Positions 1 through 12,041 of a stretch of 64,000 nt of DNA are shown in pieces. A program made the position numbers and the translations under genes. Within the stretch, counting starts at the first letter, position 1; every line of letters starts with the position of its first letter. Location: contig CAVZKL010000009.1 of assembly GCA_963775895.1 (NCBI GenBank), positions 1 to 64,000 of the forward strand, written 5' to 3'. The DNA is from Candidatus Bathyarchaeota archaeon. GTDB taxonomy: Archaea; Thermoproteota; Bathyarchaeia; Bathyarchaeales; Bathycorpusculaceae. Under the pieces are notes generated by a model. The model ran no database searches and had not been told where the DNA came from. It saw only the letters and a list, made by a program, of their open reading frames with translations.

Positions 1-1
1 C

Positions 2-13
2 TAGCGCGCGCTA
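2..13. repeat. Site S1, TAGCGCGCGCTA (perfect 12-bp palindrome)
   Basis: Read directly; sits at the very start of the window. Confidence 0.8.
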
Positions 14-140
14 TTGGTCTTAGGTTCATTATGAGGGGGTAAGTTTTTGAGTGAATTCTACCCCTCGTAGCAGCAACTGACTATCCTATCCTTGTCTTGT
101 TCCACTGGTATCCAAGTGTATCCTGAATTGGGTATACACC

Positions 141-195
141 ATCGTCCGTCGTGGTCGTCGTGGTTCGTGGTCGTGGTCATCGTCGTCCGTCGTCG
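141..195 (+). repeat. Low-complexity (GTC/GTG)n microrepeat
   Basis: atcgtccgtcgtggtcgtcgtggttcgtggtcgtggtcatcgtcgtccgtcgtcg. Confidence 0.6.
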
Positions 196-229
196 TTTTG
201 GTTGGTTGGTTGTTGGGGTAAAGTTTTAT
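196..229 (+). repeat. Direct repeat copy A, TTTTGGTTGGTTGG-(TTGTT)-GGGGTAAAGTTTTAT
   Basis: Near-identical to 1747-1774 apart from a short indel. Confidence 0.75.
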
Positions 230-276
230 CCCACACACACAAAAAAAACTGGTTGAAAAACTGTCAAAAGACTATT

Positions 277-978
277 CTAGCTTGAATGATGCCAGCCGTA
301 TTCTTCATAAATCTTCTTACCGCTGTCGGACACGAGGAAGTCGATGAATTTCTTTGCAAGGTCTTTGTTCTTGGAGAAAGTGATAACCCCTATTGCTGTG
401 CTTCTGTGCACTTGAAGGTCTTTCGGCAACTCTATTCTATCCATAGTTTCCATGTTCAAGTTTTTGAAGGCATTCCATCCAAGAATTGCATCCACTTTCT
501 TCTTGTTGATAAAAGACATCAATTCGCCACATCCATCGGCATAAGCAACGGTATTCTTTCTGATTTGCTCGGCAAATCCAGCTTTAGTTGCTAAATCATC
601 CCAGACTCCAGTCAAACAGCCACTTACAGAAACACCAAGAAGCATTCCTTCTCTTGCCAAATCGGACATTGACTTTATCTTCTTAGGATTTCCAGTTTGC
701 ACAAGAATGGCAGAGGTTCTTGAACCAAGGCTTCTTCTTGTTTCTTTAAGAACTAATCCCTTCAACTGTGCATGGTCAAGTATATACTCTGAACCACAGG
801 TTAACAAGTCGCCTTCTTTAGTTTCTGCGATTTCTTCTATGAGGTTTTCGGCTTTTCCGACAGTAAACTCAAATTCTGTTCCGAATTTTGTTTTGAACTG
901 TTCCGCACATTTCTTTATCGGTGGTGCTACTGCACCAGCGGAAAAAACATGGAGATTGTTTTGTTTCGACATATTCAT
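277..978 (-). CDS. modA: ModA-like molybdate/tungstate-binding protein with no apparent signal peptide
   Basis: LHVFSAGAVAPP start, GNPKKIKSMSDL, C-terminal AKKFIDFLVSDSGKKIYEEYGW typical of ModA; start at 978 or 972 after a GGTG SD. Confidence 0.75.
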   Translation of the reverse strand: MNMSKQNNLHVFSAGAVAPPIKKCAEQFKTKFGTEFEFTVGKAENLIEEIAETKEGDLLTCGSEYILDHAQLKGLVLKETRRSLGSRTSAILVQTGNPKKIKSMSDLAREGMLLGVSVSGCLTGVWDDLATKAGFAEQIRKNTVAYADGCGELMSFINKKKVDAILGWNAFKNLNMETMDRIELPKDLQVHRSTAIGVITFSKNKDLAKKFIDFLVSDSGKKIYEEYGWHHSS

Positions 979-1005
979 TCTCACACCGATCAATTGTATG
1001 AATAT

Positions 1006-1206
1006 TCAACTTTGCATTTCTTTGATTTTCTCTTCGACTGCTTCAAGCTCCTTCTTCAATTCTTCTGCGTAGTTCTTCAGCTTCTCAGTCTTCTCAGCTT
1101 TGGTAAGGAAGCGTCTTCTGTAACCATGCTCATGTCCATGCATACCCCACCCACAATAGTTGTCATGTCTCCCATGATGCATACCACAACCACATTCATC
1201 GTTCAT
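1006..1206 (-). CDS. Small protein with Gly/His/Cys-rich N-terminus and coiled-coil C-terminus (DUF5320-like)
   Basis: CGCGMHHGRH...GYRRRFLTKAEKTEKLKNYAEELKKELEAVEEKIKEM; GAGGTGA SD upstream. Confidence 0.75.
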   Translation of the reverse strand: MNDECGCGMHHGRHDNYCGWGMHGHEHGYRRRFLTKAEKTEKLKNYAEELKKELEAVEEKIKEMQS

Positions 1207-1254
1207 GTATTTGTTTCACCTCACTTTTCGTTTAACTATAGAAAGTAAAGTATT

Positions 1255-1270
1255 TAAACTATCAAGTTTA
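1255..1270. promoter_or_regulatory. Candidate operator palindrome TAAACT-N4-AGTTTA in the divergent promoter region
   Basis: Perfect 6-bp inverted repeat overlapping a TTTAAA TATA-like box between the divergent regulator and the DUF5320/modA genes. Confidence 0.4.
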
Positions 1271-1308
1271 TAGTGTAATAGCCGCTATTGACAGCGAAAG
1301 TGACGGTT

Positions 1309-1716
1309 ATGCAGAACAAGAATGAAGTGGTTTGTTATTGTCCGCTTGAAGGAGTCATAGATGTGATTAGCAAGAAATGGGCACTTCTTATCATAAATGT
1401 AATCGGGAACTACAGTTGTCTCAGATTCAACAAACTCATGGAAGAACTGCATGGCATCAGCCCAAAAACTCTTGCAGACACGCTGAAACAACTTCAAAAT
1501 GAACAGTTGCTCAAAAGAGAGTCATTCGCTGAAATCCCACCTCGTGTTGAATACTCATTGACAAAAGACGGACAAGGGCTAAGAGAAGCGGTGGTGCCTA
1601 TCCTAAAGTGGGCAGCAACGAGGCAAGGCTCCAAAAGGAAGTGCTCCCTATCTTACAGGAAAATGCCCGCACACAGGATAAGAGACAAAGTCACTCAAGA
1701 AAGCACGAAGAAATAG
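1309..1716 (+). CDS. HxlR-family winged-helix transcriptional regulator
   Basis: CP..G..DVISKKW, LRFNKL, ISPKTLADTLKQL, PPRVEYSLT motifs. Confidence 0.92.
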   Translation: MQNKNEVVCYCPLEGVIDVISKKWALLIINVIGNYSCLRFNKLMEELHGISPKTLADTLKQLQNEQLLKRESFAEIPPRVEYSLTKDGQGLREAVVPILKWAATRQGSKRKCSLSYRKMPAHRIRDKVTQESTKK

Positions 1717-1739
1717 AGGACTTTTTTATCAGTCCCTCT
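1715..1739 (+). terminator. Possible terminator after the HxlR gene (T-run in an imperfect hairpin)
   Basis: AGAGGAC-TTTTTTATCA-GTCCCTCT at the stop codon. Confidence 0.35.
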
Positions 1740-1746
1740 TAAGCCA

Positions 1747-1774
1747 TTTTGGTTGGTTGGGGGTAAAGTTTTAT
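1747..1774 (+). repeat. Direct repeat copy B, TTTTGGTTGGTTGGGGGTAAAGTTTTAT
   Basis: Matches 196-229; the pair brackets modA-DUF5320-hxlR. Confidence 0.75.
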
Positions 1775-1912
1775 TTTTTATCAGTTACTCCTCTACCCCC
1801 TCCAGATAACGATGATTTGCATGGTTAATGGGAGTTTTACTCCTCTTTTTGGAGTTTGTTTGGCAGAGAACTAGATTTTCGGGGTGGTTCTGCGTTCAGG
1901 GTGAAACCATGA

Positions 1913-1924
1913 TAGCGCACGCTA
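1913..1924. repeat. Site S2, TAGCGCACGCTA (1 mismatch to S1)
   Basis: Read directly; intergenic. Confidence 0.7.
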
Positions 1925-2033
1925 GTAGCTATGCGTGTGGAGAAAGCTGAAGAAAAGCTAATCAAAGAAGGTTTAGATACTTGGGGTTACATATTAAGCG
2001 TTAAGAATTGTCTGCAATTCCTACGTGAAATGA

Positions 2034-2270
2034 ATGTCGCCTCCAGATGTTTTGATTGAAATCAATCGACCAGGACAAATCTTTGAACGATTTAGAGTTC
2101 ATATCATAAAGAAAAGAAATGTAGAGCCAGAATACTTTAAGGTAGTTCCAAAGACACACCCTGCGTTAGCTATTAAACAGGTGAATGTTGGACTTAAAGT
2201 GAAAGATGAAGATGTTATTCAGTTTCTCAAAAGTTACTACGGAACAGATATCTTGATAAGAACTGTCTAG
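2034..2270 (+). CDS. Hypothetical 78-aa protein whose stop codon is the TAG of site S3
   Basis: Open frame with ATG and an upstream TATA-like TATTAAG; no family recognised. Confidence 0.65.
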   Translation: MSPPDVLIEINRPGQIFERFRVHIIKKRNVEPEYFKVVPKTHPALAIKQVNVGLKVKDEDVIQFLKSYYGTDILIRTV

Positions 2271-2279
2271 CGCGCGCCT
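2268..2279. repeat. Site S3, TAGCGCGCGCCT
   Basis: Read directly; overlaps the stop of 2034..2270. Confidence 0.75.
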
Positions 2280-2328
2280 TAAGGAACCGCGAGCGTGATG
2301 GGAAGCTTTGGTACAATAGGCATCATTT

Positions 2329-2394
2329 CTACTTCATTGCTTCTTTCTTCTTTTTTTCTTCTTTCATCCTTTCTTTCTTTCTTTTAGTTGTCAT
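2329..2394 (-). CDS. Putative 21-aa Lys/Glu-rich micro-peptide MTTKRKKERMKEEKKKKEAMK
   Basis: Hand translation; GAAGGTGA SD 4 nt upstream of the ATG; the only ORF I found between S3 and S4. Confidence 0.45.
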   Translation of the reverse strand: MTTKRKKERMKEEKKKKEAMK

Positions 2395-2476
2395 CGCATC
2401 ACCTTCTATTTACCATTTATCTCTAACAATTTCGTAGACTTGTTGTAAAGAATATCTATTTCTATGTTTCCTTGCT

Positions 2477-2490
2477 AAGCGCGCGCGCTA
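2477..2490. repeat. Site S4, AAGCGCGCGCGCTA
   Basis: Read directly; its CTA is the minus-strand TAG stop of the integrase remnant. Confidence 0.8.
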
Positions 2491-2681
2491 ATTTCTCTTT
2501 TTGAACAGCGTTGTTTCGTTATGGGTGCAGACGTAATCAAATCCTGCTTCGATGAGTTTTTGGCCTCATCGCCATTACTGGCCACTGCTGAGCAGTACTC
2601 ATCGCTCTCAAACTCTACTAGCTACGTGTAGATCTAGGTATTCGCGATGTTCTTGTGCCTCAACAACATCACGTCCAGCAC
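2488..2681 (-). pseudogene. Decayed tyrosine recombinase/integrase C-terminal fragment
   Basis: Hand translation VLDVMLLRHKNIANT*IYT*LVEFESDEYCSAVASNGDEAK, frameshift, LIEAGFDYVCTHNETTLFKKRN*; matches box II LLGHxxxxxTxxYT including the catalytic Tyr (2628-2630); two internal TAG stops. Confidence 0.8.
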
Positions 2682-2780
2682 GCGCTTGAACCTTAACGTG
2701 TTTATGATGCTACAATAAATCTAATGTTCCACATTCGCTTCTAATGGCACACTCCTGCAAACCAGACCCTGAAAAAGGAA

Positions 2781-2792
2781 GAGCGCGCGCTA
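2781..2792. repeat. Site S5, GAGCGCGCGCTA
   Basis: Read directly; left border of the ABC-exporter module. Confidence 0.8.
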
Positions 2793-2885
2793 ATTTTGCG
2801 CCCGCCCAACCATAAAAAGAAAGACCTAAATCGTGGTTGGTTTTTCTGAACCGTTTATTCGTTTGACTGAGGTGCTTGGTGGAAT

Positions 2886-3881
2886 ATGGAGTTCGCTGTT
2901 GATGTTAGAGGGTTAACAAAGGTTTATGATGGTAAGGTAAGGGCCCTAGATGGTATTGATTTGCAGGTCGGGGCCGGTAGGGTTTTCGCTTTGCTTGGCC
3001 CTAACGGGGCTGGCAAAACTACTCTGATGAGGATCTTAACCACGCAGCTCAAGCCCACTTCTGGCGAAGCTTACGTTTTCGGACTAGATGTTGTCCGTGA
3101 GAACGCTGAAATTAGGAGGCTTGTTGGCTATATTCCCCAAGAAGTGAGTGTCTGGACCGATATAAGTGGCTACGAAAATCTTCTAATCTATGCTAAAATC
3201 TACGGCGTTTCCCCTTCTAAAAGAAAAGAGATCATTAAGGATGCCTTAAAAATAATGGGGTTGAGCGAAGTTGCTAACGATCTCGTTAAGACGTACTCTG
3301 GTGGAATGATAAGAAGACTTGAGACCGCAAGCACTATGCTAATTAAGCCCAAGATTCTGTTTTTGGACGAGCCCACCATAGGCTTGGATCCCTCCGCTAG
3401 AAAGGCTGTTTGGGAGGAACTCACATCTTTCAAGAAAGAATACGGGGCAACAGTCTTCTTCAATACGCACTATATGGATGAAGCTGACCTCTACGCTGAT
3501 GAGATAGCCATAATCAACGACGGGAAGATCGCAAAGCGGGGTACTGCCGAAGAGCTCAAGCGTTCTGTTGGAGGAGAAGTCATTCTATTAAGCGCGGATA
3601 ATAATATCAACGAAGATTGTTTGAACAAAGTTAGAAGGTTGAGCTTGGTCAATGATGTTATCGTAGATGATTCGGAGCTAAGTGTCGTCGTCAAAGACGC
3701 AGAGACGGCTTTGCCTGATATTATGGAGGTTTTGAGAGTAAGTTGCGTTACCGTAAAGAAGATTTCAATAACCAAGCCGACTTTGGATGACGTCTTCTTG
3801 AAGTATGCTGGAACCAGACTTGAGTCTGGTGGCAGAATCAGCGAGGTTAGACAAGTTAGAGGCAGGATCAGGAGGGGATAG
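2886..3881 (+). CDS. ABC exporter ATP-binding subunit (DrrA family)
   Basis: GPNGAGKT Walker A, YSGGM signature, LFLDEPT Walker B, THYMDEA, C-terminal KPTLDDVFL. Confidence 0.95.
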   Translation: MEFAVDVRGLTKVYDGKVRALDGIDLQVGAGRVFALLGPNGAGKTTLMRILTTQLKPTSGEAYVFGLDVVRENAEIRRLVGYIPQEVSVWTDISGYENLLIYAKIYGVSPSKRKEIIKDALKIMGLSEVANDLVKTYSGGMIRRLETASTMLIKPKILFLDEPTIGLDPSARKAVWEELTSFKKEYGATVFFNTHYMDEADLYADEIAIINDGKIAKRGTAEELKRSVGGEVILLSADNNINEDCLNKVRRLSLVNDVIVDDSELSVVVKDAETALPDIMEVLRVSCVTVKKISITKPTLDDVFLKYAGTRLESGGRISEVRQVRGRIRRG

Positions 3882-3883
3882 AT

Positions 3884-4648
3884 TTGATGGACTCTTTGAG
3901 AAACATGCTTGTCATGATTGAACTTGAGCTTCGGAGACTCAAGCACGATAGAACAGAACTCTACACTAGGGCTGTTCAACCTATCTTATGGATCGTCATC
4001 TACGGTCCCATTATGAGCGCCGTCAAGGCAATACCCACTGGCGGTATACCTTATACAGACTACATTACTCCAGGTGTGCTGATACAGTCGACAACTTTTG
4101 TCTCCATCTTCTATGGTTTAACCATCGTCTGGGAAAGGGAGTCGGGCATTTTGAAAAAGCTCCTAGTCACACCTGCCTCGAGATACGCCACTGTCATAGG
4201 CAGGTCGATGGCGTCAGGTGTTAGGGCAATATTTCAAGCCCTAATCATCGTTCCAGTAGCGTTACTCATCGGAGTCAGGTTTGTACCTAATATTGCGTAT
4301 TTTGCTTCAGCTTTTCTGATAATATTCTTTGCTTCCGGAGGCTTTGCAGCAATATCGATCCTCATCGCGTCTTTCATGAAGACTAGAGAAAGATTCATGG
4401 GCATAGGCCAAGCCATAACCTTCCCACTCTTCTTTGCGAGCAACGCGTTATATCCTGTTCAAATGATGCCGCCCATCTTGCAGTGGTTTTCACGCGTTAA
4501 CCCCATGAGCTACATAGTCGACGCTGTAAGGAGCTTGATGATTAGCGGGAACTTGGTCAACCTTCCAATCGATTTGGCAGCCATTGCACTTTTCGATGCA
4601 ATAATGTTTGTCCTAGCCTCAGCAAGCTTCAAGAGGATTATAGAATAG
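3884..4648 (+). CDS. ABC-2 type permease (DrrB family)
   Basis: About 6 TM segments, WERESGILKKLLVTP, NPMSYIVDAVRSL. Confidence 0.93.
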   Translation: MMDSLRNMLVMIELELRRLKHDRTELYTRAVQPILWIVIYGPIMSAVKAIPTGGIPYTDYITPGVLIQSTTFVSIFYGLTIVWERESGILKKLLVTPASRYATVIGRSMASGVRAIFQALIIVPVALLIGVRFVPNIAYFASAFLIIFFASGGFAAISILIASFMKTRERFMGIGQAITFPLFFASNALYPVQMMPPILQWFSRVNPMSYIVDAVRSLMISGNLVNLPIDLAAIALFDAIMFVLASASFKRIIE

Positions 4649-4665
4649 GTCTTGACTTCGAGGAT

Positions 4666-4677
4666 GAGCGCGCGCCA
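4666..4677. repeat. Site S6, GAGCGCGCGCCA
   Basis: Read directly; between the convergent permease and DUF3795 gene ends. Confidence 0.75.
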
Positions 4678-4701
4678 GGCATTTCTATAATTCTCTTCCC
4701 A

Positions 4702-5127
4702 TTACAGCTCTGATTCTTCTTTAGACTTTTTCAGCCTGTCTTCGCATTCTCTCTGGAGCCAGAGCCATTTCTTCCGGTACCAGTCGTTGCTCCATGCTTT
4801 CTTTTGTTCTTCTAGCCATCTTCCTGTTCCGACGGCTCTACGTCTCCTCAGGTTCTCGATGACTGTCAAGTGATGCTGCCACACGGGGTTGTAGCAGAAT
4901 TGTATGAGCCGAGAGCAGGGAAACTCTTCGCACTCGCCGCAGGCTTCAAGACTCCGTTGTTCAACGCAACACTCGTAGATGTCGCATTGCTTGTGATGGT
5001 TTGAAGCAGCGCATGAGTCGCAGTTGCAGCCGCAGCCATGACAGTTTTTGTAGACCAAGTGGTCGATGCAAGCGCCACAGTAGAGACCGCAGGGTGCAGC
5101 TTGTTTGCTGTCTTCGTTTGAAGTCAT
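4702..5127 (-). CDS. Cys-rich DUF3795-like protein
   Basis: APCGLYCGAC, CHGC, CDIYECC, CGECEEFPC, ENLRR motifs; GAGGGAGG SD. Confidence 0.85.
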   Translation of the reverse strand: MTSNEDSKQAAPCGLYCGACIDHLVYKNCHGCGCNCDSCAASNHHKQCDIYECCVEQRSLEACGECEEFPCSRLIQFCYNPVWQHHLTVIENLRRRRAVGTGRWLEEQKKAWSNDWYRKKWLWLQRECEDRLKKSKEESEL

Positions 5128-5250
5128 GCATCCTCCCTCATTCGCTGATGATGGCTCGTTCTTTGCAGTATTTCAACATTGCGACAATGTGAAACAAGTA
5201 GCAGTCCCCGTGTGCTTGATTATTGCGTTTCTCGTCAAGCTTAACTTTAA

Positions 5251-5262
5251 AACGCGCGCGTA
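5251..5262. repeat. Site S7 (divergent), AACGCGCGCGTA
   Basis: (CG)4 core between divergent genes, directly 3' of a TTTAAA box; flanks differ from the consensus. Confidence 0.5.
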
Positions 5263-5285
5263 GTTATAGTTGCCTTGATGAGCTT

Positions 5286-6071
5286 ATGAAGGAAAGCAGA
5301 AAGACCCTACTGGTTCTAGTAATGCTTCTAGTTTGCGTGTTTATTCCATCTTTTGCCGCTGTGCCTTTCTCTCCGCAAGACAGCTCACTTGTGATTAAAG
5401 ACGTCCTGATCCAAACCTCTGCTGCGTACCTGTGGCTCAGCCCAATAATTCACGTTATCACTATTGTACTTCTCATAGCCTTGTATCTATACGGATCGAA
5501 AATAGGCAGAGTTACCGACGCCTTTTTCGGAATCCTGTTCTTCTTCTTTGCTTTCAGCAATCACATCGCTGTGACTGAACACTATGGGCTTGCCGTGATA
5601 ACAGGTAATTTGGTCCCTATTTTTGTCGTGGGCCTGTTCTGGATGTGGGAAGTCTACAGACCCCATAACGAGTATACTTTTGAGAGGCTCCCCGCTTGGA
5701 GATACTGGGTTTTGCCCTTTGTTTTCCTAGCTTTTTGGTCTCCGATAAACGCTAGTCTGAATCCAGACTTCAATCCTTTGTTGGTACTCACATCTTCCTT
5801 TGGAGTGATGTACTGTCCCACCACGCCCCTCATAATAGCCATCCTAACCCTAATCTATCCGAAGGTAAACATGTTTGTTCTAAGAACCACAAGTTTCGTT
5901 GGCCTGGTAATCGGTATGTTTAACGCCATGTCATTTTTCATGATGCCAGGCTATACCTTATGGAATTTGATCCTGCACACACCACTCATATTCATCTCAG
6001 CGTACGGCTTACTCATTCCAATCCTAGTGAAGAAGAATATTCCGCCGGAAACATCGCAAGAGCGAAAATAG
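5286..6071 (+). CDS. Hypothetical multi-pass membrane protein
   Basis: About 8 hydrophobic segments; ATG 5286 preferred over TTG 5223 because of the TATA position. Confidence 0.85.
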   Translation: MKESRKTLLVLVMLLVCVFIPSFAAVPFSPQDSSLVIKDVLIQTSAAYLWLSPIIHVITIVLLIALYLYGSKIGRVTDAFFGILFFFFAFSNHIAVTEHYGLAVITGNLVPIFVVGLFWMWEVYRPHNEYTFERLPAWRYWVLPFVFLAFWSPINASLNPDFNPLLVLTSSFGVMYCPTTPLIIAILTLIYPKVNMFVLRTTSFVGLVIGMFNAMSFFMMPGYTLWNLILHTPLIFISAYGLLIPILVKKNIPPETSQERK

Positions 6072-6148
6072 GATAGAGTTGCAGGCACTAGACGACAAGC
6101 AGACTGCTCCACATTAACCTATCAATGGAATATTGTTAGGTACTATGT

Positions 6149-6160
6149 TCGCGCGCGTTA
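6149..6160. repeat. Site S8, TCGCGCGCGTTA (right border of the island)
   Basis: 6151-6180 matches 2481-2510 at 24/30 positions. Confidence 0.75.
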
Positions 6161-6184
6161 TTTTCGTTTTCTGAACAGCATCAA
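6158..6184 (-). pseudogene. Second integrase 3'-end remnant (LMLFRKRK*), possibly traceable to about 6260
   Basis: Similar to the LFKKRN* tail at 2488-2508, and its stop is also followed directly by CGCGCG. Confidence 0.55.
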
Positions 6185-6386
6185 TGGGCACAACGAATCA
6201 TCTTGCGACAGAATCACAAATTCAAGATCCCATCTCGCCGAGTTCATGAACTAGTTTCTTGAATACAAAGGGTGCCAGAAGAAAAAAACCCGCAAGGGCC
6301 GACACTTCTTGTCTTAGACTTAAATGTAACTTGACATCTCTATCATTTGGACTTAACATATCTTGGAAATCTGGTGGACGACAAAC

Positions 6387-6818
6387 ATGGACGAGATACT
6401 GGAGATACTCAGAAAAACTGCATCAAGAACGCAGAAACTCTTTGACGAAAGCAAAGATCCAGCGTTGAAGAGAATAGAGAGATACGACAGGACACTCAAA
6501 TCAGAAGAGACTTCTGAAGCCCAAAAAGTCCAAGCTTCGATCATGAAGAAAATCGAATATGACCGATTGGAACAATTGTCTTCACAGCTGAGCCTCCTGT
6601 ACATTCTTCAGATGTTTGCTTTCAAAGTTAAAATAGTCCAGATATCGATCGCCAATCTTCAGGAGCAACTTCAAAAATCTGAGTTGCTTGGGAAGACCAA
6701 GGAAATTGAGGACGCAAAGAATGACGTGGAAAAACTGAAGATACTGTTGGAGGCCCAGTACGAGCTGATAAGGCAAATCGGAGAAGGACGAAAAGAGGAT
6801 CTGAACTATATAACCTAG
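6387..6818 (+). CDS. Hypothetical coiled-coil protein
   Basis: Helical E/K/L/Q-rich ORF; GGTGG SD before ATG 6387. Confidence 0.7.
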   Translation: MDEILEILRKTASRTQKLFDESKDPALKRIERYDRTLKSEETSEAQKVQASIMKKIEYDRLEQLSSQLSLLYILQMFAFKVKIVQISIANLQEQLQKSELLGKTKEIEDAKNDVEKLKILLEAQYELIRQIGEGRKEDLNYIT

Positions 6819-6932
6819 AGAATTAGACTGAAAACGACGGCTGACCTGCTTCTTTCAAGAGTCCTCGCTTCAATTTTGTTCTATACTTATAAATTCCCGA
6901 ATAGTCCTTCTTAAAACAGGAAGGACGATAGG

Positions 6933-7536
6933 TTGCCCAAGGAACTGAAGTTCGAAGCTCCGACGTGGAATCAGATATACGACATGCTGTTGAACCTGGC
7001 TGATAAAATCCGAAGCGGATGGCTTCAAGCCGGACATTATTGTCGGCATTTCAAGAGGAGGATGGCCACCAGCACGAGTCTTGTCTGACTTGCTAAGCAA
7101 TCCCAACTTGGCGAACGTCAGAGCAGAGTTCTATCTCGGTTTTGCAGAGACGAGAGACGAACCAAGTCTCACCCAGCCACTCTCGATTCACGCTGCCGAT
7201 AAGCGAATATTGATCGTGGATGAAGTCGCAGACACAGGGAAGAGCCTGCGCTTGGTGAAGAAACACGTCTGTGAACAAGGCGCAAAAGACTTGAAGATAG
7301 TGACCGTCTATTACAAACCATGGAGCATCGTCAGACCAGACTACTACGCGAAGGAGACGAGTGATTGGATAGTCTTTCCTTGGGAAATAAAGGAAACAAT
7401 CTGTAAAATCTTGAGAAGCTGCAGGAAAAACGGAGAGCCCTTTGAAAAAGAAACACAGAAGCTGGTCAAAGCGGGGATACCAGCCAAGCTAGTGAAACGT
7501 TTTGTGAAAGAAATCACTGAGGAAAATTATTGCTGA
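6933..7536 (+). CDS. Type I phosphoribosyltransferase (purine PRTase-like), frameshifted near 7014
   Basis: MPKELKFEAPTWNQIYDMLLNLADKIR, then in the +1 frame ADGFKPDIIVGISRGG...ILIVDEVADTGKSL...WIVFPWE. Confidence 0.85.
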
Positions 7537-8096
7537 AATTCATCGAGGAATTTCGCAGATACGCTGAAATCGCTGGCTTCAAGAACGTCAAGATAGGGAA
7601 CCCCAAGCGGTTTTTGCTCTCGTTTGAAGAACAAAAGCCGTCAAACGTGGATGTTCAATTTTTCGATGCCAATCGAGTTGCAACCTGGGAACACCTGTAC
7701 TTTGCGGCTTTGAACGCGCTGACAGCGTTCGAGACCCACAAGAATATTTCAAAGAGTCTTCCCATGGAGACTTTGCTTTACGCTGCGGCTGAGAAACAGA
7801 TAGTCAAGGCAACTGAACTCATGGGGATCAGATCAACCTCACGATGTATAGCGGTTTTAATTATGGGAAAACAGCTCAAGACAGTAAGATCAACATTATC
7901 GCTGATTTCAAAGTGCTTTGCTCAGCAACCAGAAGACGGAGTGCTCGAACTGTCTGAAGACAAAATGCCACTCATTCAAAGGATTTTCAACATTGGAAGC
8001 GCAGAGCTTCAAACAGTCATGCAAAACTGTGATGAGAAAAGAGCTCTGACCGATTTGGTCATTGAAATGATGGCTTTGTCGACTACCAAACGCTAA
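7530..8096 (+). CDS. cgi121: KEOPS complex subunit Cgi121
   Basis: VQFFDA..V....HL..A..NAL.AF...KNISKSL.ME.LLYAA...QI.KA pattern. Confidence 0.85.
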   Translation: MLKFIEEFRRYAEIAGFKNVKIGNPKRFLLSFEEQKPSNVDVQFFDANRVATWEHLYFAALNALTAFETHKNISKSLPMETLLYAAAEKQIVKATELMGIRSTSRCIAVLIMGKQLKTVRSTLSLISKCFAQQPEDGVLELSEDKMPLIQRIFNIGSAELQTVMQNCDEKRALTDLVIEMMALSTTKR

Positions 8097-8617
8097 AGGA
8101 CTTTCTCTTTGAGGACAGAAAGGATTTCATCAGGTTTTGCTACGCAAATTCCCGTCAACCGCCCCACCACTTCTATGAGCAGGATTTTGTCAGGATTTGA
8201 CAGATTCACCTTTCTCTTCACGTTCATTGCGGCAGCCTCAATGATGTCTTTGGAAGAAGTTGTCGTGAAACGTTTTTCAACAGTAACTCGGAAAGTCTCG
8301 TTATCCGCGATTTCTGAACTCATTTCCTTCACTGCACTCTGAATTTCTTCAATATCGGTGTGCACCACCCTCTCAACAGGAAGGACTCGAAGCAAAAAGC
8401 GAAACTCGTAGGGACGCGCCTGAAGGATTTCACGCAATTTCCTTATTGCTTCAGTGGATCGAATCGTTGTCTTGGCAACGACCACGCCGGAAATTCCTGT
8501 CCGATCTGCAAGCGCAGTCGGGTCGCCTATCTGTTCGAGAAGATAACGTAATTCTGAACGAGCTTGGCCCTCGGATCTCCGATACGTGGTTCCGATGAGG
8601 TTGAAGTCCTTCAGCAC
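8093..8617 (-). CDS. THUMP domain RNA-binding protein
   Basis: ETFRVTVEKR...KVNLSNPDKILLIEVVG; likely GTG start at 8617. Confidence 0.88.
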   Translation of the reverse strand: MLKDFNLIGTTYRRSEGQARSELRYLLEQIGDPTALADRTGISGVVVAKTTIRSTEAIRKLREILQARPYEFRFLLRVLPVERVVHTDIEEIQSAVKEMSSEIADNETFRVTVEKRFTTTSSKDIIEAAAMNVKRKVNLSNPDKILLIEVVGRLTGICVAKPDEILSVLKEKVL

Positions 8618-8861
8618 TGTACACACCACTGCCAGAGTTGTCACGCTGAAATTTAACCGTTTCAAACGTAAGCTCTGAAAAATCTGGTTTCAAGGGTCAG
8701 TGTGGATTTGGCTTTTTCATTGCTAGAAGCTCCCAGCCGTCGCCTCACATCATCCCATGAATAGTGTTCCATTGCAGAGATTTATCCATTTTGACGGTTC
8801 GAGGCGCTACGCTTAAATTTCGATTACTTGGCTAGCATATCAGACTTGAAGTGATAGAAAC

Positions 8862-9824
8862 TTGCCAGAAAAGCAGAAACCAGTAATAGTAGTACAGGGT
8901 GGCGCCGGGAGATGGCAGCCTGAACGCAATCAACCCGGCATATTAGGCGTCAAGAAAGCCGCTTCCGTGGGTTTCGATATTTTGAAGAAAGGCGGAGAAG
9001 CCCTCGACAGCGTGACAGAAGCAGTTGCCATACTGGAGGACGATGGAACCTTCAACGCAGGTTATGGGTCAAGTCTGAACGTTGACAAACAAGTTGAGAT
9101 GGAAGCCTCAATAATGGATGGGAAAAATCTGAAGGCTGGCGCAGTTGGACTCTTACGAGACATCAAGAATCCCGTCCGTCTGGCGAGGATCGTGATGGAA
9201 GATTCAGATCACGTTTTTGTCGTGGGAGAAGGAGCTGAGAAACTTGCCAGGCTGCACAACCTTCCGAGAAGAAATCCCGTAAGTGAGCTTAGACTTCGCT
9301 ACTATGAAGAACAGAAGAAAGCTTTACTGGAAGGCAGGTACGAGCTCCCGAAACTCGGCGAACTGGTGAGTAAGCACCCCGAACTCTTCAACCTTGAAAC
9401 CGTCGGATCAGTAGCGTTAGACAAGAACGGAAACGTGGCCGCCGCAACCTCAACTGGCGGCTTTCCCATGAAGCTTCCGGGCAGAATCGGGGATTCGCCT
9501 TTGATCGGATGCGGAACTTACGCGGACAACCGGGCTGGGGCCTGTTCCGCCACGGGTGTAGGTGAAATTGCCATTCGATTGGTCTTGTCAAAGACCGTCT
9601 GCAACTACATGGAAAGCGGAAAATCTGCAGAGAAGGCTGTTGAACTTGCGATCAAGATTGTGAACGACAGAATCAAAGCAGAATACAACGCGATGGGTTT
9701 GGTTGCCATCGACACCCAGGGCAGAATCGGGGCGGCGCACAACTCATCGAACATGTGCTGGGCATATTTGACACCGGATATGAAGGAGCCAATTGCTTCC
9801 TTGACTGGAAGAATCGTGAAATAA
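8862..9824 (+). CDS. iaaA: Isoaspartyl peptidase / type 2 L-asparaginase
   Basis: FNAGYGS, MEASIMDG, ETVGSVA nucleophile, ATSTGG, GRIGDSP, ATGVGE. Confidence 0.93.
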   Translation: MPEKQKPVIVVQGGAGRWQPERNQPGILGVKKAASVGFDILKKGGEALDSVTEAVAILEDDGTFNAGYGSSLNVDKQVEMEASIMDGKNLKAGAVGLLRDIKNPVRLARIVMEDSDHVFVVGEGAEKLARLHNLPRRNPVSELRLRYYEEQKKALLEGRYELPKLGELVSKHPELFNLETVGSVALDKNGNVAAATSTGGFPMKLPGRIGDSPLIGCGTYADNRAGACSATGVGEIAIRLVLSKTVCNYMESGKSAEKAVELAIKIVNDRIKAEYNAMGLVAIDTQGRIGAAHNSSNMCWAYLTPDMKEPIASLTGRIVK

Positions 9825-9951
9825 AGTCTTTGAAAGGACCATTCATTCAAAACTCATCGTTCGGTTCTCGACAATTGACGAATGACAATGTTTAAAGATT
9901 TCATGAGCGTCTCCACTCTACCTATTCGGAATGCGACGGAGGTGAAAACGA

Positions 9952-10029
9952 ATGGTGTTTGAGGAAGACTGGGAAGAAGAAGAGGAATGGGAAGAGGAAG
10001 AGGAAGACTGGGAAGAAGAGGAATGGTAG
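9952..10029 (+). CDS. 25-aa hyperacidic micro-protein MVFEEDWEEEEEWEEEEEDWEEEEW
   Basis: Perfect GGAGGTGA SD 6 nt upstream, TTTAAA box at 9891, T-rich tract downstream; mixed GAA/GAG codons. Confidence 0.7.
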   Translation: MVFEEDWEEEEEWEEEEEDWEEEEW

Positions 10030-10044
10030 GTTCAGCGTTAATCA

Positions 10045-10066
10045 CTCTTTTTTGTGTTTTTTTCTT
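10045..10066 (+). terminator. Oligo-T archaeal terminator after the acidic micro-ORF
   Basis: ctcttttttgtgtttttttcttt tract. Confidence 0.5.
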
Positions 10067-10156
10067 TGGCGACAGATCGGATAGAAACTTTGATCCTGTT
10101 TTTCAAGGTTCACATTTATAAACCACCATTAGCCAGCGTTCACTGTCGGATTGATA

Positions 10157-11950
10157 ATGACGAGAGTCGCTGTCCTAGACGCAGACAGGTGCAAACCAAA
10201 GCGTTGCAATCAGCTTTGTTACCGTTTTTGCCCAATCGTGCGCAGCAAAGTGGAAGCTATACGATTCGAAAACGAAAAAGCCATCATAGTTGAGTCGTTG
10301 TGCACAGGGTGTGGAATATGCGTTAAGAAGTGCCCTTTCAAGGCGATTTCCATTGTCAACCTGCCGGACGAGTTAGAAAAGGACTGCAGTCACCGGTTTG
10401 GAGAGAACAGTTTCAAACTTTTCAGGCTCCCCACGCCATCCCCTGGGACGGTTCTGGGTTTGCTCGGACAAAACGGCATAGGCAAAACAACCACCCTCAA
10501 AATCCTTTCAGGAGACGTGAAACTGAACCTCGGTGACTATCGGAACCCTCCAGACTGGACCGAGATAATCCAACATTTTAGAGGTTCAACGCTCCAAGAC
10601 TATTTCCTGAAAATGAGCGAGAACAAGCTCAAGATCTCACAAAAACCTCAGTACGTCGACAAGATTCCCAGAGCCGTGTCAGGAAATGCACGAGAACTCT
10701 TGGAAAAAGTGAATGAAAGAGGCACTCTTGACAAAGTGGCTGAACAGCTTGAACTCAAGCAGGTCTGGGACCGGTCGATCGATGTTCTCAGCGGCGGCGA
10801 ACTGCAAAGACTGGCTGTGGCTGCCACAATATGCCGTGAAGCGGATGTATATCTCTTCGATGAGCCCTCAAGCTACTTGGACGTGAAGCAGCGCCTCGTC
10901 GTAGCCAAGGCAATTAGAAGCCTCAAATCAGAACAGAAAATCGTCATCGTCGCCGAGCACGATCTAGCCATAATAGACTATCTGTCAGACCAAATCTGCG
11001 TTTTCTACGGAGAACCCGGTGTCTACGGCATAGTCTCAAACGTTCACGGAGTTAGAACCGGAATAAACATTTACCTTGAAGGCTACATCCCAGATGAGAA
11101 CGTTCGATTCAGAAAAGAACCGATAATCTTCCATGAAAAACCGCCCGCCCAAAGAGTGGAAGCAGGCGAAACGCTTCTACAATGGGACAAAATAGAGAAA
11201 ACGTTCAAAGGATTCAAGCTCACAGCCCACTCTGGAGAAATCAAGAGAGGAGAAATAATCGGAATTCTGGGTGCCAACGGCACCGGCAAAACCACATTTG
11301 TGAAGATTCTGGCTGGAATTGAAGAGCCTGACAACGAAAAGAAGTTTGGCCAGCTGAAGGTGAGTTATAAGCCTCAATACATTTCGGCGGAATATCAAGG
11401 GACAGTTCAAGAACTTCTCATGCATCTTGCAAAAGAGAACTTCGAATCAGGATGGTACAGAAGCGAGATTCTTCTGCCCCTGCGCATAAACACGTTACTT
11501 GACAGAGATGTGGCAGAACTCAGCGGTGGAGAACTTCAAAAAATAGCCATTGCAGCATGTCTGTCACAAAATGCTGAACTTTACCTGCTGGACGAGCCCA
11601 GCGCTTACTTGGACGTTGAGGAACGTCTGAACATGGCAAGGGCAATCAGAAGAGTTGTTGAAAGCCGCAATGTTACAGGCTTCGTCGTAGAACATGATGT
11701 TGTCACGCAGGACTTCATAGCCGACCATCTGATGATCTTCACAGGAAAACCCGGCGTAGAAGGCGTTGCTAACCAGCCTACAACTTTGAGGAAAGGAATG
11801 AACACGTTCCTGAAAGAGATGGAAGTTACTTTCAGAAGAGACCCGACCACCAAGAGACCGAGAGTGAACAAGGAAGGCTCGAAGCTTGACAAATTCCAAA
11901 AAGAAGTCGGAGAATACTATTACACACGCTTAGCGAAAGCAAAACACTGA
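10157..11950 (+). CDS. rli1: Ribosome recycling ATPase ABCE1/Rli1
   Basis: N-terminal double [4Fe-4S] domain, two ABC domains (LSGGELQ), TFRRD...RPRVNK. Confidence 0.97.
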   Translation: MTRVAVLDADRCKPKRCNQLCYRFCPIVRSKVEAIRFENEKAIIVESLCTGCGICVKKCPFKAISIVNLPDELEKDCSHRFGENSFKLFRLPTPSPGTVLGLLGQNGIGKTTTLKILSGDVKLNLGDYRNPPDWTEIIQHFRGSTLQDYFLKMSENKLKISQKPQYVDKIPRAVSGNARELLEKVNERGTLDKVAEQLELKQVWDRSIDVLSGGELQRLAVAATICREADVYLFDEPSSYLDVKQRLVVAKAIRSLKSEQKIVIVAEHDLAIIDYLSDQICVFYGEPGVYGIVSNVHGVRTGINIYLEGYIPDENVRFRKEPIIFHEKPPAQRVEAGETLLQWDKIEKTFKGFKLTAHSGEIKRGEIIGILGANGTGKTTFVKILAGIEEPDNEKKFGQLKVSYKPQYISAEYQGTVQELLMHLAKENFESGWYRSEILLPLRINTLLDRDVAELSGGELQKIAIAACLSQNAELYLLDEPSAYLDVEERLNMARAIRRVVESRNVTGFVVEHDVVTQDFIADHLMIFTGKPGVEGVANQPTTLRKGMNTFLKEMEVTFRRDPTTKRPRVNKEGSKLDKFQKEVGEYYYTRLAKAKH

Positions 11951-12041
11951 TCTAACATTAAGAAACACGAATGCCAGACAGCATTCCGTGGAGAATTCTT
12001 TAATAAAAGATCAATTGAAATCCTTGGCCTAGTGCAATCGA

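Follow-up and report, generated by a model that had tools for sequence, protein, structure and literature searches.

The locus and its cassette array

The window, that is, the whole analysed stretch of 64,000 nucleotides, is positions 1-64000 of contig C9 in a Bathyarchaeia MAG of 1.77 Mb, 88.8% complete (G000, below "this genome"). Positions 1-6157 form an array of seven units parted by (GC)4-5 tracts (Table 1), and core DNA starts at about 6386. One of the units carries the 3' end of a tyrosine integrase gene. The unit next to it, the 201-bp cassette, has its copies in G009:C15, G005:C10, G005:C9 and G002:C9, and contains, on the minus strand, a Lys-rich mini-ORF of 21 codons with GGTGAT ahead of it. 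On the other side lies the 97-bp unit, of which this genome has no fewer than 8 copies; others are in G001, G004, G005, G008 and G009. It folds no better than its shuffles (z -0.46), and the Rfam scan of window positions 1-7000 yielded only a sub-threshold DicF match (24.7 bits vs 48), taken as chance. Farther on, the unit 4677-5192 with the Cys-rich ORF is duplicated at C17:150646-151160 with 95% identity, a GC tract being situated near the boundary in both copies at differing offsets. The membrane ORF of the last cassette runs to 6071.

Homology blocks end at the tracts. Between species, the block 2269-2478 is 94-97% identical and the block 2791-4675 is 97% identical, while the core at 6386-9000 is 67-76% identical. 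Since the units are so much closer to each other than the core, they must move between species, the integrase stump being one of them. The arrays swap whole genes, as is seen for the ABC transporter, 97% identical to its counterpart in G004 where the core DNA of the same pair of genomes is 70% identical. When empty and filled sites were compared with five genomes of the genus at C17:112000-120000, synteny was found to be lost past the first 2.7 kb.

Of the words sampled from window positions 1-7000, no public run contained more than half, and the Logan contigs from 4 runs with 90% likeness to the window were short pieces only. Three X8 contigs match up to 2780 and then pass through AGCGCGCGC into other sequence; joints seen in single contigs also adjoin tracts (1912/1924 to 2268, and 2788 to 5127). 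These are weak hints on the tract joints, the sides of the contigs being shorter than 40 nt and maybe derived from other organisms. Several contigs of the MAG themselves begin or end at a (GC)4-5 tract (window 4-11, C11:3, C26:13, C8:14340, C26:12154), and the assembly seems to break where the cassette content varies in the population.

Table 1. Features of the array at the start of the window, of the integrase remnant and of related fragments
Feature	Position	Strand	Remark
GCGCGCGC tract at contig start	4-11	.	left limit of the array as assembled (contig end)
GCGCGCGC junction tract	2270-2277	.	
201-bp cassette	2278-2478	.	94-97% identical at four loci of three other species
(GC)5 junction tract	2479-2488	.	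G at 2488 doubles as the third base of the remnant's TAG
Integrase stump unit	2489-2680	-	between the (GC)5 and the degenerate GCGCG tracts
Terminal TAG stop of the remnant	2488-2490	-	overlaps the (GC)5 tract at its third base
Frame B	2491-2556	-	22 codons, LIEAGFDYVCTHNETTLFKKRN; family-specific C-terminal extension with LFRKRK-type tail
Frameshift site, A5 run	2557-2561	-	1 base short vs in-frame paralogue C7:2698-2820
Frame A	2562-2681	-	40 codons, VLDVMLLRHKNIANT-stop-IYT-stop-LVEFESDEYCSAVASNGDEA; box II of tyrosine recombinase
Second in-frame TAG	2622-2624	-	at the family's Gln/His position in YTQL/YTHL
Catalytic Tyr codon TAC	2628-2630	-	kept
First in-frame TAG	2634-2636	-	at the family's Leu position in NTLIYT
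His of box II	2655-2657	-	kept (CAC)
Gly to Arg in LGH motif	2658-2660	-	AGG; Arg-His at 2655-2660, Gly-His in the family
Degenerate junction tract GCGCG	2681-2685	.	5' limit of integrase similarity
97-bp non-coding cassette	2686-2782	.	repeated in this genome and across the genus
GCGCGCGC junction tract	2783-2790	.	
ABC-transporter cassette	2791-4667	+	two genes (2886-3881, 3884-4648); 97% identical to G004:C115
GCGCGCGC junction tract	4668-4675	.	
Two further cassettes	4676-6157	.	Cys-rich ORF unit and membrane-ORF unit
Cys-rich ORF, 141 aa	4702-5127	-	in unit 4677-5192
CGCGCGCG tracts	5253-5260 and 6150-6157	.	
Tract-abutting fragment starts, this genome	window; C26:8677; C17:77403; C11:3866		VLDVM; YDINNP; LRYIHL; VLEHGF, respectively
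Tract-abutting fragment starts, G009	L052; L050		KATIEY; SAVAS, respectively

The integrase remnant

Translation and profile searches demonstrate that, on the minus strand, 2488-2681 codes for the C-terminal ~67 of the ~409 positions of a tyrosine integrase, or ~16% of the gene. The minus-strand reading given in the preliminary description was reproduced exactly. For the similarity searches we used a profile built from 12 integrase C-termini of other genera only, to avoid circularity, and applied it to 66,153 six-frame pieces of the genome. Taken singly, frame B scores 31.4 bits (E 5.7e-7) and frame A 14.1 bits (E 0.14). Read through, with X in place of the two internal TAGs and at the frameshift, they reach 84.4 bits (E 1.6e-23) and cover profile positions 18-84 of 85. 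The identity to the relatives from other genera is 51-59% over 66-68 residues, and that to the sister fragment C7:2698-2820 is 76% (28/37). The similarity to integrases is far beyond chance. Thus the tyrosine recombinase similarity on which the preliminary description had staked its identification is present in the translated profile search, and its reading of the locus as a decayed C-terminal remnant, with Gly replaced by Arg in box II and the Tyr retained, holds. The remnant is a relic of a PF00589 family member and not a working member. The Pfam search proposed at the same time gave a divided answer: the intact paralogue on C22 is matched by PF00589 (E 7.9e-21), but the remnant and its pieces are not, because only the last ~25 Pfam positions are kept and the pieces are too short.

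That the decay is real, as had been claimed, follows from two in-frame TAG codons, a frameshift, a missing codon and the absence of the N-terminal part from the contig. The missing codon is in VM-LL, and the final Lys of the family is Asn in the remnant. The frame break marked earlier as K/L is there, but its nature has to be corrected: one nucleotide has been lost from an A-run, at a place where the fragment C7:2698-2820 reads GCA AAG AAG CTA in frame. The N-terminal ~340 positions are nowhere on contig C9, where the full-length profile of 409 positions has a sole match, to positions 386-408. Hence, of the catalytic set, the remnant has only the last His and the Tyr positions, the other catalytic positions having gone with the lost ~340 of 409.

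Both limits of the remnant coincide with tracts. At the 3' side the terminal TAG overlaps the repeated GC tract, as noted earlier, the G at 2488 being common to both and serving as the first base of GCGCGCGCGC (2488-2479). At the 5' side the tract is degenerate; in a copy at C10:47961 it is complete, GCGCGCGCG, and leads into TGCTG just as GCGCG does in the window. The non-integrase neighbour units are bounded by tracts on both sides in the same way.

The integrase family in this genome and its relatives

The integrase family was found in 125 of the order's 151 sampled genomes, and its trait is a C-terminal extension of ~40 residues ending in LFRKRK. The intact paralogue in this genome (C22:61629-62648) is 339 aa long, with the C-terminus ...LGHRNINNTLIYTHLVKFNDKEEYYSATAKTVDEAAKLIEQGFDYVTDVDGVKLFRKRK. 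Among solved structures, XerA is its best match (5HXY, E 5.2e-13; 4A8E, E 4.7e-12). The comparison with archaeal XerA-like models, recommended in the preliminary description, went the other way: the paralogue scores 105 bits in the curated XerA model (NF040815), below the cut-off of 220, so it is not XerA. Its scores are also below the cut-offs of the integron integrase models, 68.7 vs 265 bits for TIGR02249 and 39.4 vs 435 for NF011946.

In other genera, 13 loci were inspected past the integrase stop. Within ~20-50 nt of it they have the 3' end of a tRNA in reverse complement, and in 11 of them ARAGORN predicts a convergent tRNA gene at the stop (Pro, Cys, Ile or Leu). In this genome, the paralogue on C18 adjoins tRNA-Arg(gcg). 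By this arrangement, the members of the family are ordinary tRNA-targeting integrases of integrated elements. C-terminal stumps are expected debris, because the 3' end of the integrase gene forms the edge of the element. Window positions 1-12000 contain no tRNA gene according to ARAGORN.

The C18 locus (L006, G000 C18:102331-105786, gene at 1366-2397) has a further peculiarity. The tRNA-Arg(gcg) overlaps the 5' end of the integrase gene, and here, as well as at G000 C23:15671-16774, same-family frames continue in frame into tRNA-derived sequence. This layout suggests SSV-type splitting on integration for some members of the family.

No intact member of the remnant's own subfamily (HKNIANTLIYTQLVEFE) was found inside the genus, hence its native 3' flank is represented here by that of relatives that are 51-59% identical. 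The sister fragment on C7 (L014, G000 C7:1187-4313) and the locus L050 (G009:C14:14287-17392) are situated just downstream of a tRNA 3' end, the upstream tRNA being a full tRNA-Ile(gat) in L050 and partial in L014. The two loci have a common GGTTCAGGT linker, with a GC tract between the linker and the fragment, degenerate in C7. To go by L050, L109 and L112, the native neighbour of the subfamily would be tRNA-Ile(gat).

GC tracts in the genome and across the genus

The sequence GCGCGCGC occurs in 254 copies (234 runs) in this genome, compared with ~18 expected. Its 13.7-fold excess is by far the largest of any palindromic 8-mer (3.3-fold for the next non-GC one); (ATGC)n and other palindromic 8-mers are not enriched in this genome. 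By crude longest-ORF gene calls, 164 of the 234 runs are intergenic, although non-coding DNA makes up only 14% of the genome. The runs are clustered, half of the spacings being at most 2 kb vs 23% expected, and of the 495 positions where an intragenomic repeat block ends 23 have a tract, vs 0.2% of random positions. All 10 other genomes of the genus have 29-464 copies. The numbers are 0-14 in eight sister genera, and 53 in one genome from another part of the order. The feature is specific to the genus.

Next to the tracts, position -1 is A in 59% of the flanks and position -2 is T in 35%, with the mirror images on the other side. There is no conservation beyond 1-2 nt on either side of the tract, no binding arms and no extended palindromy, the complementarity of the flanks being at background beyond the first position. 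Because of the preference for A at -1 and T at -2, a TAG is created in both directions. Nine other crude ORFs have their TAG in common with a tract, and four more stop flush against one. A tract is situated within 30 nt on 67 of 187 sides facing a gene 3' end, compared with 22 of 141 facing a 5' end. Thus TAG-in-tract arises from the TA-(GC)n-TA context preference and the closeness of tracts behind gene ends.

A separate element of ~80 bp occurs in 36 copies that are 87-99% alike and always end in ...GGATCCAAATATG (e.g. G000 C10:104280-104377, C4:7882-7966, C9:68942-68998). In four copies, a (GC)3-4 tract is situated 7-23 nt past the ATG. The element looks like a shared promoter or leader-plus-start module.

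Relation of the integrase family to the tracts

It had been proposed that the remnant supplies a candidate enzyme family for the array, and that the sequence after the stop codon of the closest intact paralogue be inspected. Past the stops of the intact relatives one finds tRNA-side sequence and no GC tract. A run of (GC)3 or longer within 70 nt of the stop was found in 0 of 13 family loci from other genera, and a GC tract at the stop in 0 of 7 same-family loci in this genome. In G001, a genome of one contig with 464 tracts, a tract within 10 nt of the stop was seen in 0 of 6 loci, one locus having a tract 49 nt off. Moreover, across 31 genomes the counts of PF00589 matches do not track the counts of tracts: there are 11 matches and 14 tracts in G012, 8 and 0 in G020, and 0 and 29 in G006. 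With the stops of intact relatives free of tracts, the counts uncorrelated and the coincidence of TAG and tract generic, the proposal finds no support.

Some observations do link the two. The tract follows the TAG at 0-4 nt in the closest copies of the fragment (0 nt in the window, 1 nt at C7:2687, 4 nt in G009 L052), and a fourth, G004 L048, has the degenerate GCACGTGC after the TAG. We read this as shared descent of an already joined unit, but it may also point to a site that belongs with the remnant's subfamily, which would count against our main reading. The same direction is indicated by 7 of 10 integrase loci of this genome being within 1.5 kb of a tract, all in tract-dense regions. Finally, the intact relative L100 ends in TAGCGGGTGC, and one may speculate from this one sequence that a GC-rich native flank favoured a joint at that point.

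Two other candidates were considered and rejected. A second integrase family, represented by C9:71561-72331, was tried as the array enzyme; five of its six members examined have no tract in the locus, and it was not found in six of the 10 genus genomes, G001 with its 464 tracts among them. A restriction-modification system acting at GCGCGC was tried with the C5 cytosine methyltransferase PF00145 as the marker; searches for the latter gave nothing in G000 and G001, nor in eight of the 10 genus genomes.

Under the most serious alternative, this family or the remnant's subfamily would itself be the tract-acting recombinase, with the tract at the stop as an attI/attP-like site of its own; the pseudogene would then be a spent copy of the array's enzyme. 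We regard it as unlikely. It would explain the tract, or its degenerate form, 0-4 nt after the TAG in all four closest fragment copies and the clustering of tracts around integrase genes, and the second integrase C9:71561-72331 does end in TAG followed by GCGCGCGCG; a precedent exists in PAISt (PMC4057263), where the tyrosine recombinase IntSt acts at an 8-bp palindrome with modular excision. But none of the intact-family loci in the three sets above (0/13, 0/7, 0/6) has the tract at the stop, a tRNA gene being there instead in 11 of the 13 loci from other genera, and the second family, with a tract in one locus of six and found in only four of 10 genus genomes, is not seen in G001. The lack of relation between the PF00589 and tract counts points the same way, as does the absence of binding arms, with nothing conserved past 1-2 nt around the tract; and the position of the junction is imprecise between copies of one cassette, the offsets being 0 vs 36 nt and 6 vs 28 nt.

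The fragments might instead be complete in themselves, the C-terminal ~40-80 residues forming a self-standing module, e.g. a small DNA-binding protein, of which the remnant would be a recently inactivated copy. In the order, very many of the family's matches do fall in open frames of only 75-170 aa; in this genome, short fragments (8) outnumber long genes (~5); and the copies C7:2698-2820, C26:8676-8897 and L052 are open and in frame. What makes this very unlikely is that the 5' limits of the fragments vary from copy to copy with no shared start codon or upstream signal, that the copy in the window has two stops and a frameshift, and that short frames are expected of remnants at element edges and contig ends. 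It is extremely improbable that the remnant represents Int(C), one half of an SSV-type integrase gene that integration itself has split and that excision could rejoin: the C18 and C23:15671 frames that run into tRNA-derived sequence indicate that the split-gene layout exists in the lineage, but the 5' limit of the remnant is a GC tract with no tRNA- or att-like sequence, there are internal stops and a frameshift, and neither a tRNA gene in positions 1-12000 nor an N-terminal half on the contig was found. Reading the two TAGs as an amino acid, by recoding of the pyrrolysine type, would make the frame less broken, and all three stops of the remnant are TAG; still, this can hardly be credited, as TAG is a normal stop here, ending 754 of 2,523 crude genes, the TAGs fall on the Leu and Gln/His positions of the family, and even with recoding the frameshift would stand and ~340 positions would still be gone.

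Origin of the remnant and nature of the joints

The remnant is thus very probably the dead end of a tRNA-targeting integrase, cut out at GC tracts and carried as a passenger in the array; it would make no enzyme and would not be the array's recombinase. The proposed sequence of events is as follows. The 3' end of an intact integrase gene, situated at the edge of the element beside the target tRNA, would tend to survive the decay of the element. It would then have been severed on both sides by the GC-tract joining process of this lineage, ending up as one passenger unit, from GCGCG (2681-2685) to (GC)5 (2479-2488), of a seven-unit array, and would have decayed further after joining.

The truncation points of such fragments are informative because the sequence of the intact gene is known from relatives. 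Four of the 8 family fragments in this genome start exactly at a GC tract, and so do L050 and L052 among 7 loci of the genus (Table 1). The intact genes have no GC tract at the six codons where these fragments start. In cassettes, the offset of the tract differs between copies, 0 vs 36 nt for the ABC unit and 6 vs 28 nt for the 4677-5192 unit. Since the six cut codons are tract-less in the intact gene and the cassette offsets differ by 22-36 nt, the tract may have been brought to the break rather than serving as a pre-existing recognition site. The joints look imprecise relative to the cargo, yet always come with (GC)n.

Joints of this kind would fit a conventional site-specific recombinase badly; end joining or annealing of self-complementary (GC)n would fit better. 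In our opinion, (GC)n ends could pair with each other whichever way round they meet, and in more than one register, in the manner of adaptor-like or microhomology-mediated end joining. We offer as a tentative suggestion that the GC tracts are joints of an undescribed gene-shuffling process specific to the genus, and that the integrase fragments are its molecular fossils.

Comparison with known systems

Integrases of archaeal integrated elements include the pNOB8-type "intact" and the SSV-type "split" classes. The remnant has in common with tRNA-targeting integrases the PF00589 catalytic domain, the position of the gene at the element edge by a tRNA, and the frequent occurrence of truncated, stop-riddled remnants; in this respect it is routine integrase debris of a kind already known. 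In contrast to them, it is situated away from any tRNA gene and both its ends are GC-tract joints in a cassette array, so that its native flank appears to have been replaced by a GC-tract joint. Nor does it have the hallmarks of the SSV-type split, since the break is at GCGCG, with no tRNA-like sequence at it, and the contig lacks an N-terminal half.

XerA, the archaeal chromosome-dimer resolvase, has the same box II, LGHxxxxTTxIYTH, as the intact paralogue. The latter differs in its ~40-residue C-terminal extension, absent from XerA, and in being multi-copy and tRNA-linked. The pdif modules of Acinetobacter plasmids are moved at XerC/XerD sites, pdif being 28-bp Xer binding sites. The likeness consists in discrete gene modules between short recombination sites in many contexts; the difference is that here only A(GC)4-5T is conserved.

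Integrons, archaeal ones included, are another counterpart, as they too are arrays of small exchangeable gene units with a repeated site between them, and most known arrays have no adjacent integrase (CALINs; Ghaly et al. 2022, PMC9668308). As marks of an integron array we took a prevailing single gene orientation and attC sites, which are imperfectly palindromic over ~57-141 nt and form hairpins. The joints in the present arrays are 8-10 bp (GC)n without folded attC-like flanks: the complementarity of the flanks is at background, the 97-bp unit gives a fold z of -0.46, and genes occur in both orientations. The arrays are dispersed, with no fixed platform.

PAISt of Streptomyces turgidiscabies resembles the present case in its short palindromic crossover site, in modules bounded by copies of the latter, and in eroded integrase remnants in related islands; the palindrome on which its tyrosine recombinase IntSt acts is TTCATGAA, 8 bp long, and excision is modular (PMC4057263). 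As presented there, PAISt is one island with three sites and an adjacent active integrase, whereas here hundreds of tracts are dispersed with no conserved integrase adjacency.

No description of GC-tract cassettes was found in the literature searched. The value of the remnant is that of a control and a probe. As a control, it removes an attractive but wrong enzyme candidate for the GC-tract arrays of the genus. As a probe, its truncation points, with those of its relatives, display the joining process on a known target: the cuts are at arbitrary codons, always abutting (GC)n, and imprecise between copies. If annealing of (GC)n ends is indeed responsible, the mechanism would be unlike that of integrons, Xer modules or transposons.
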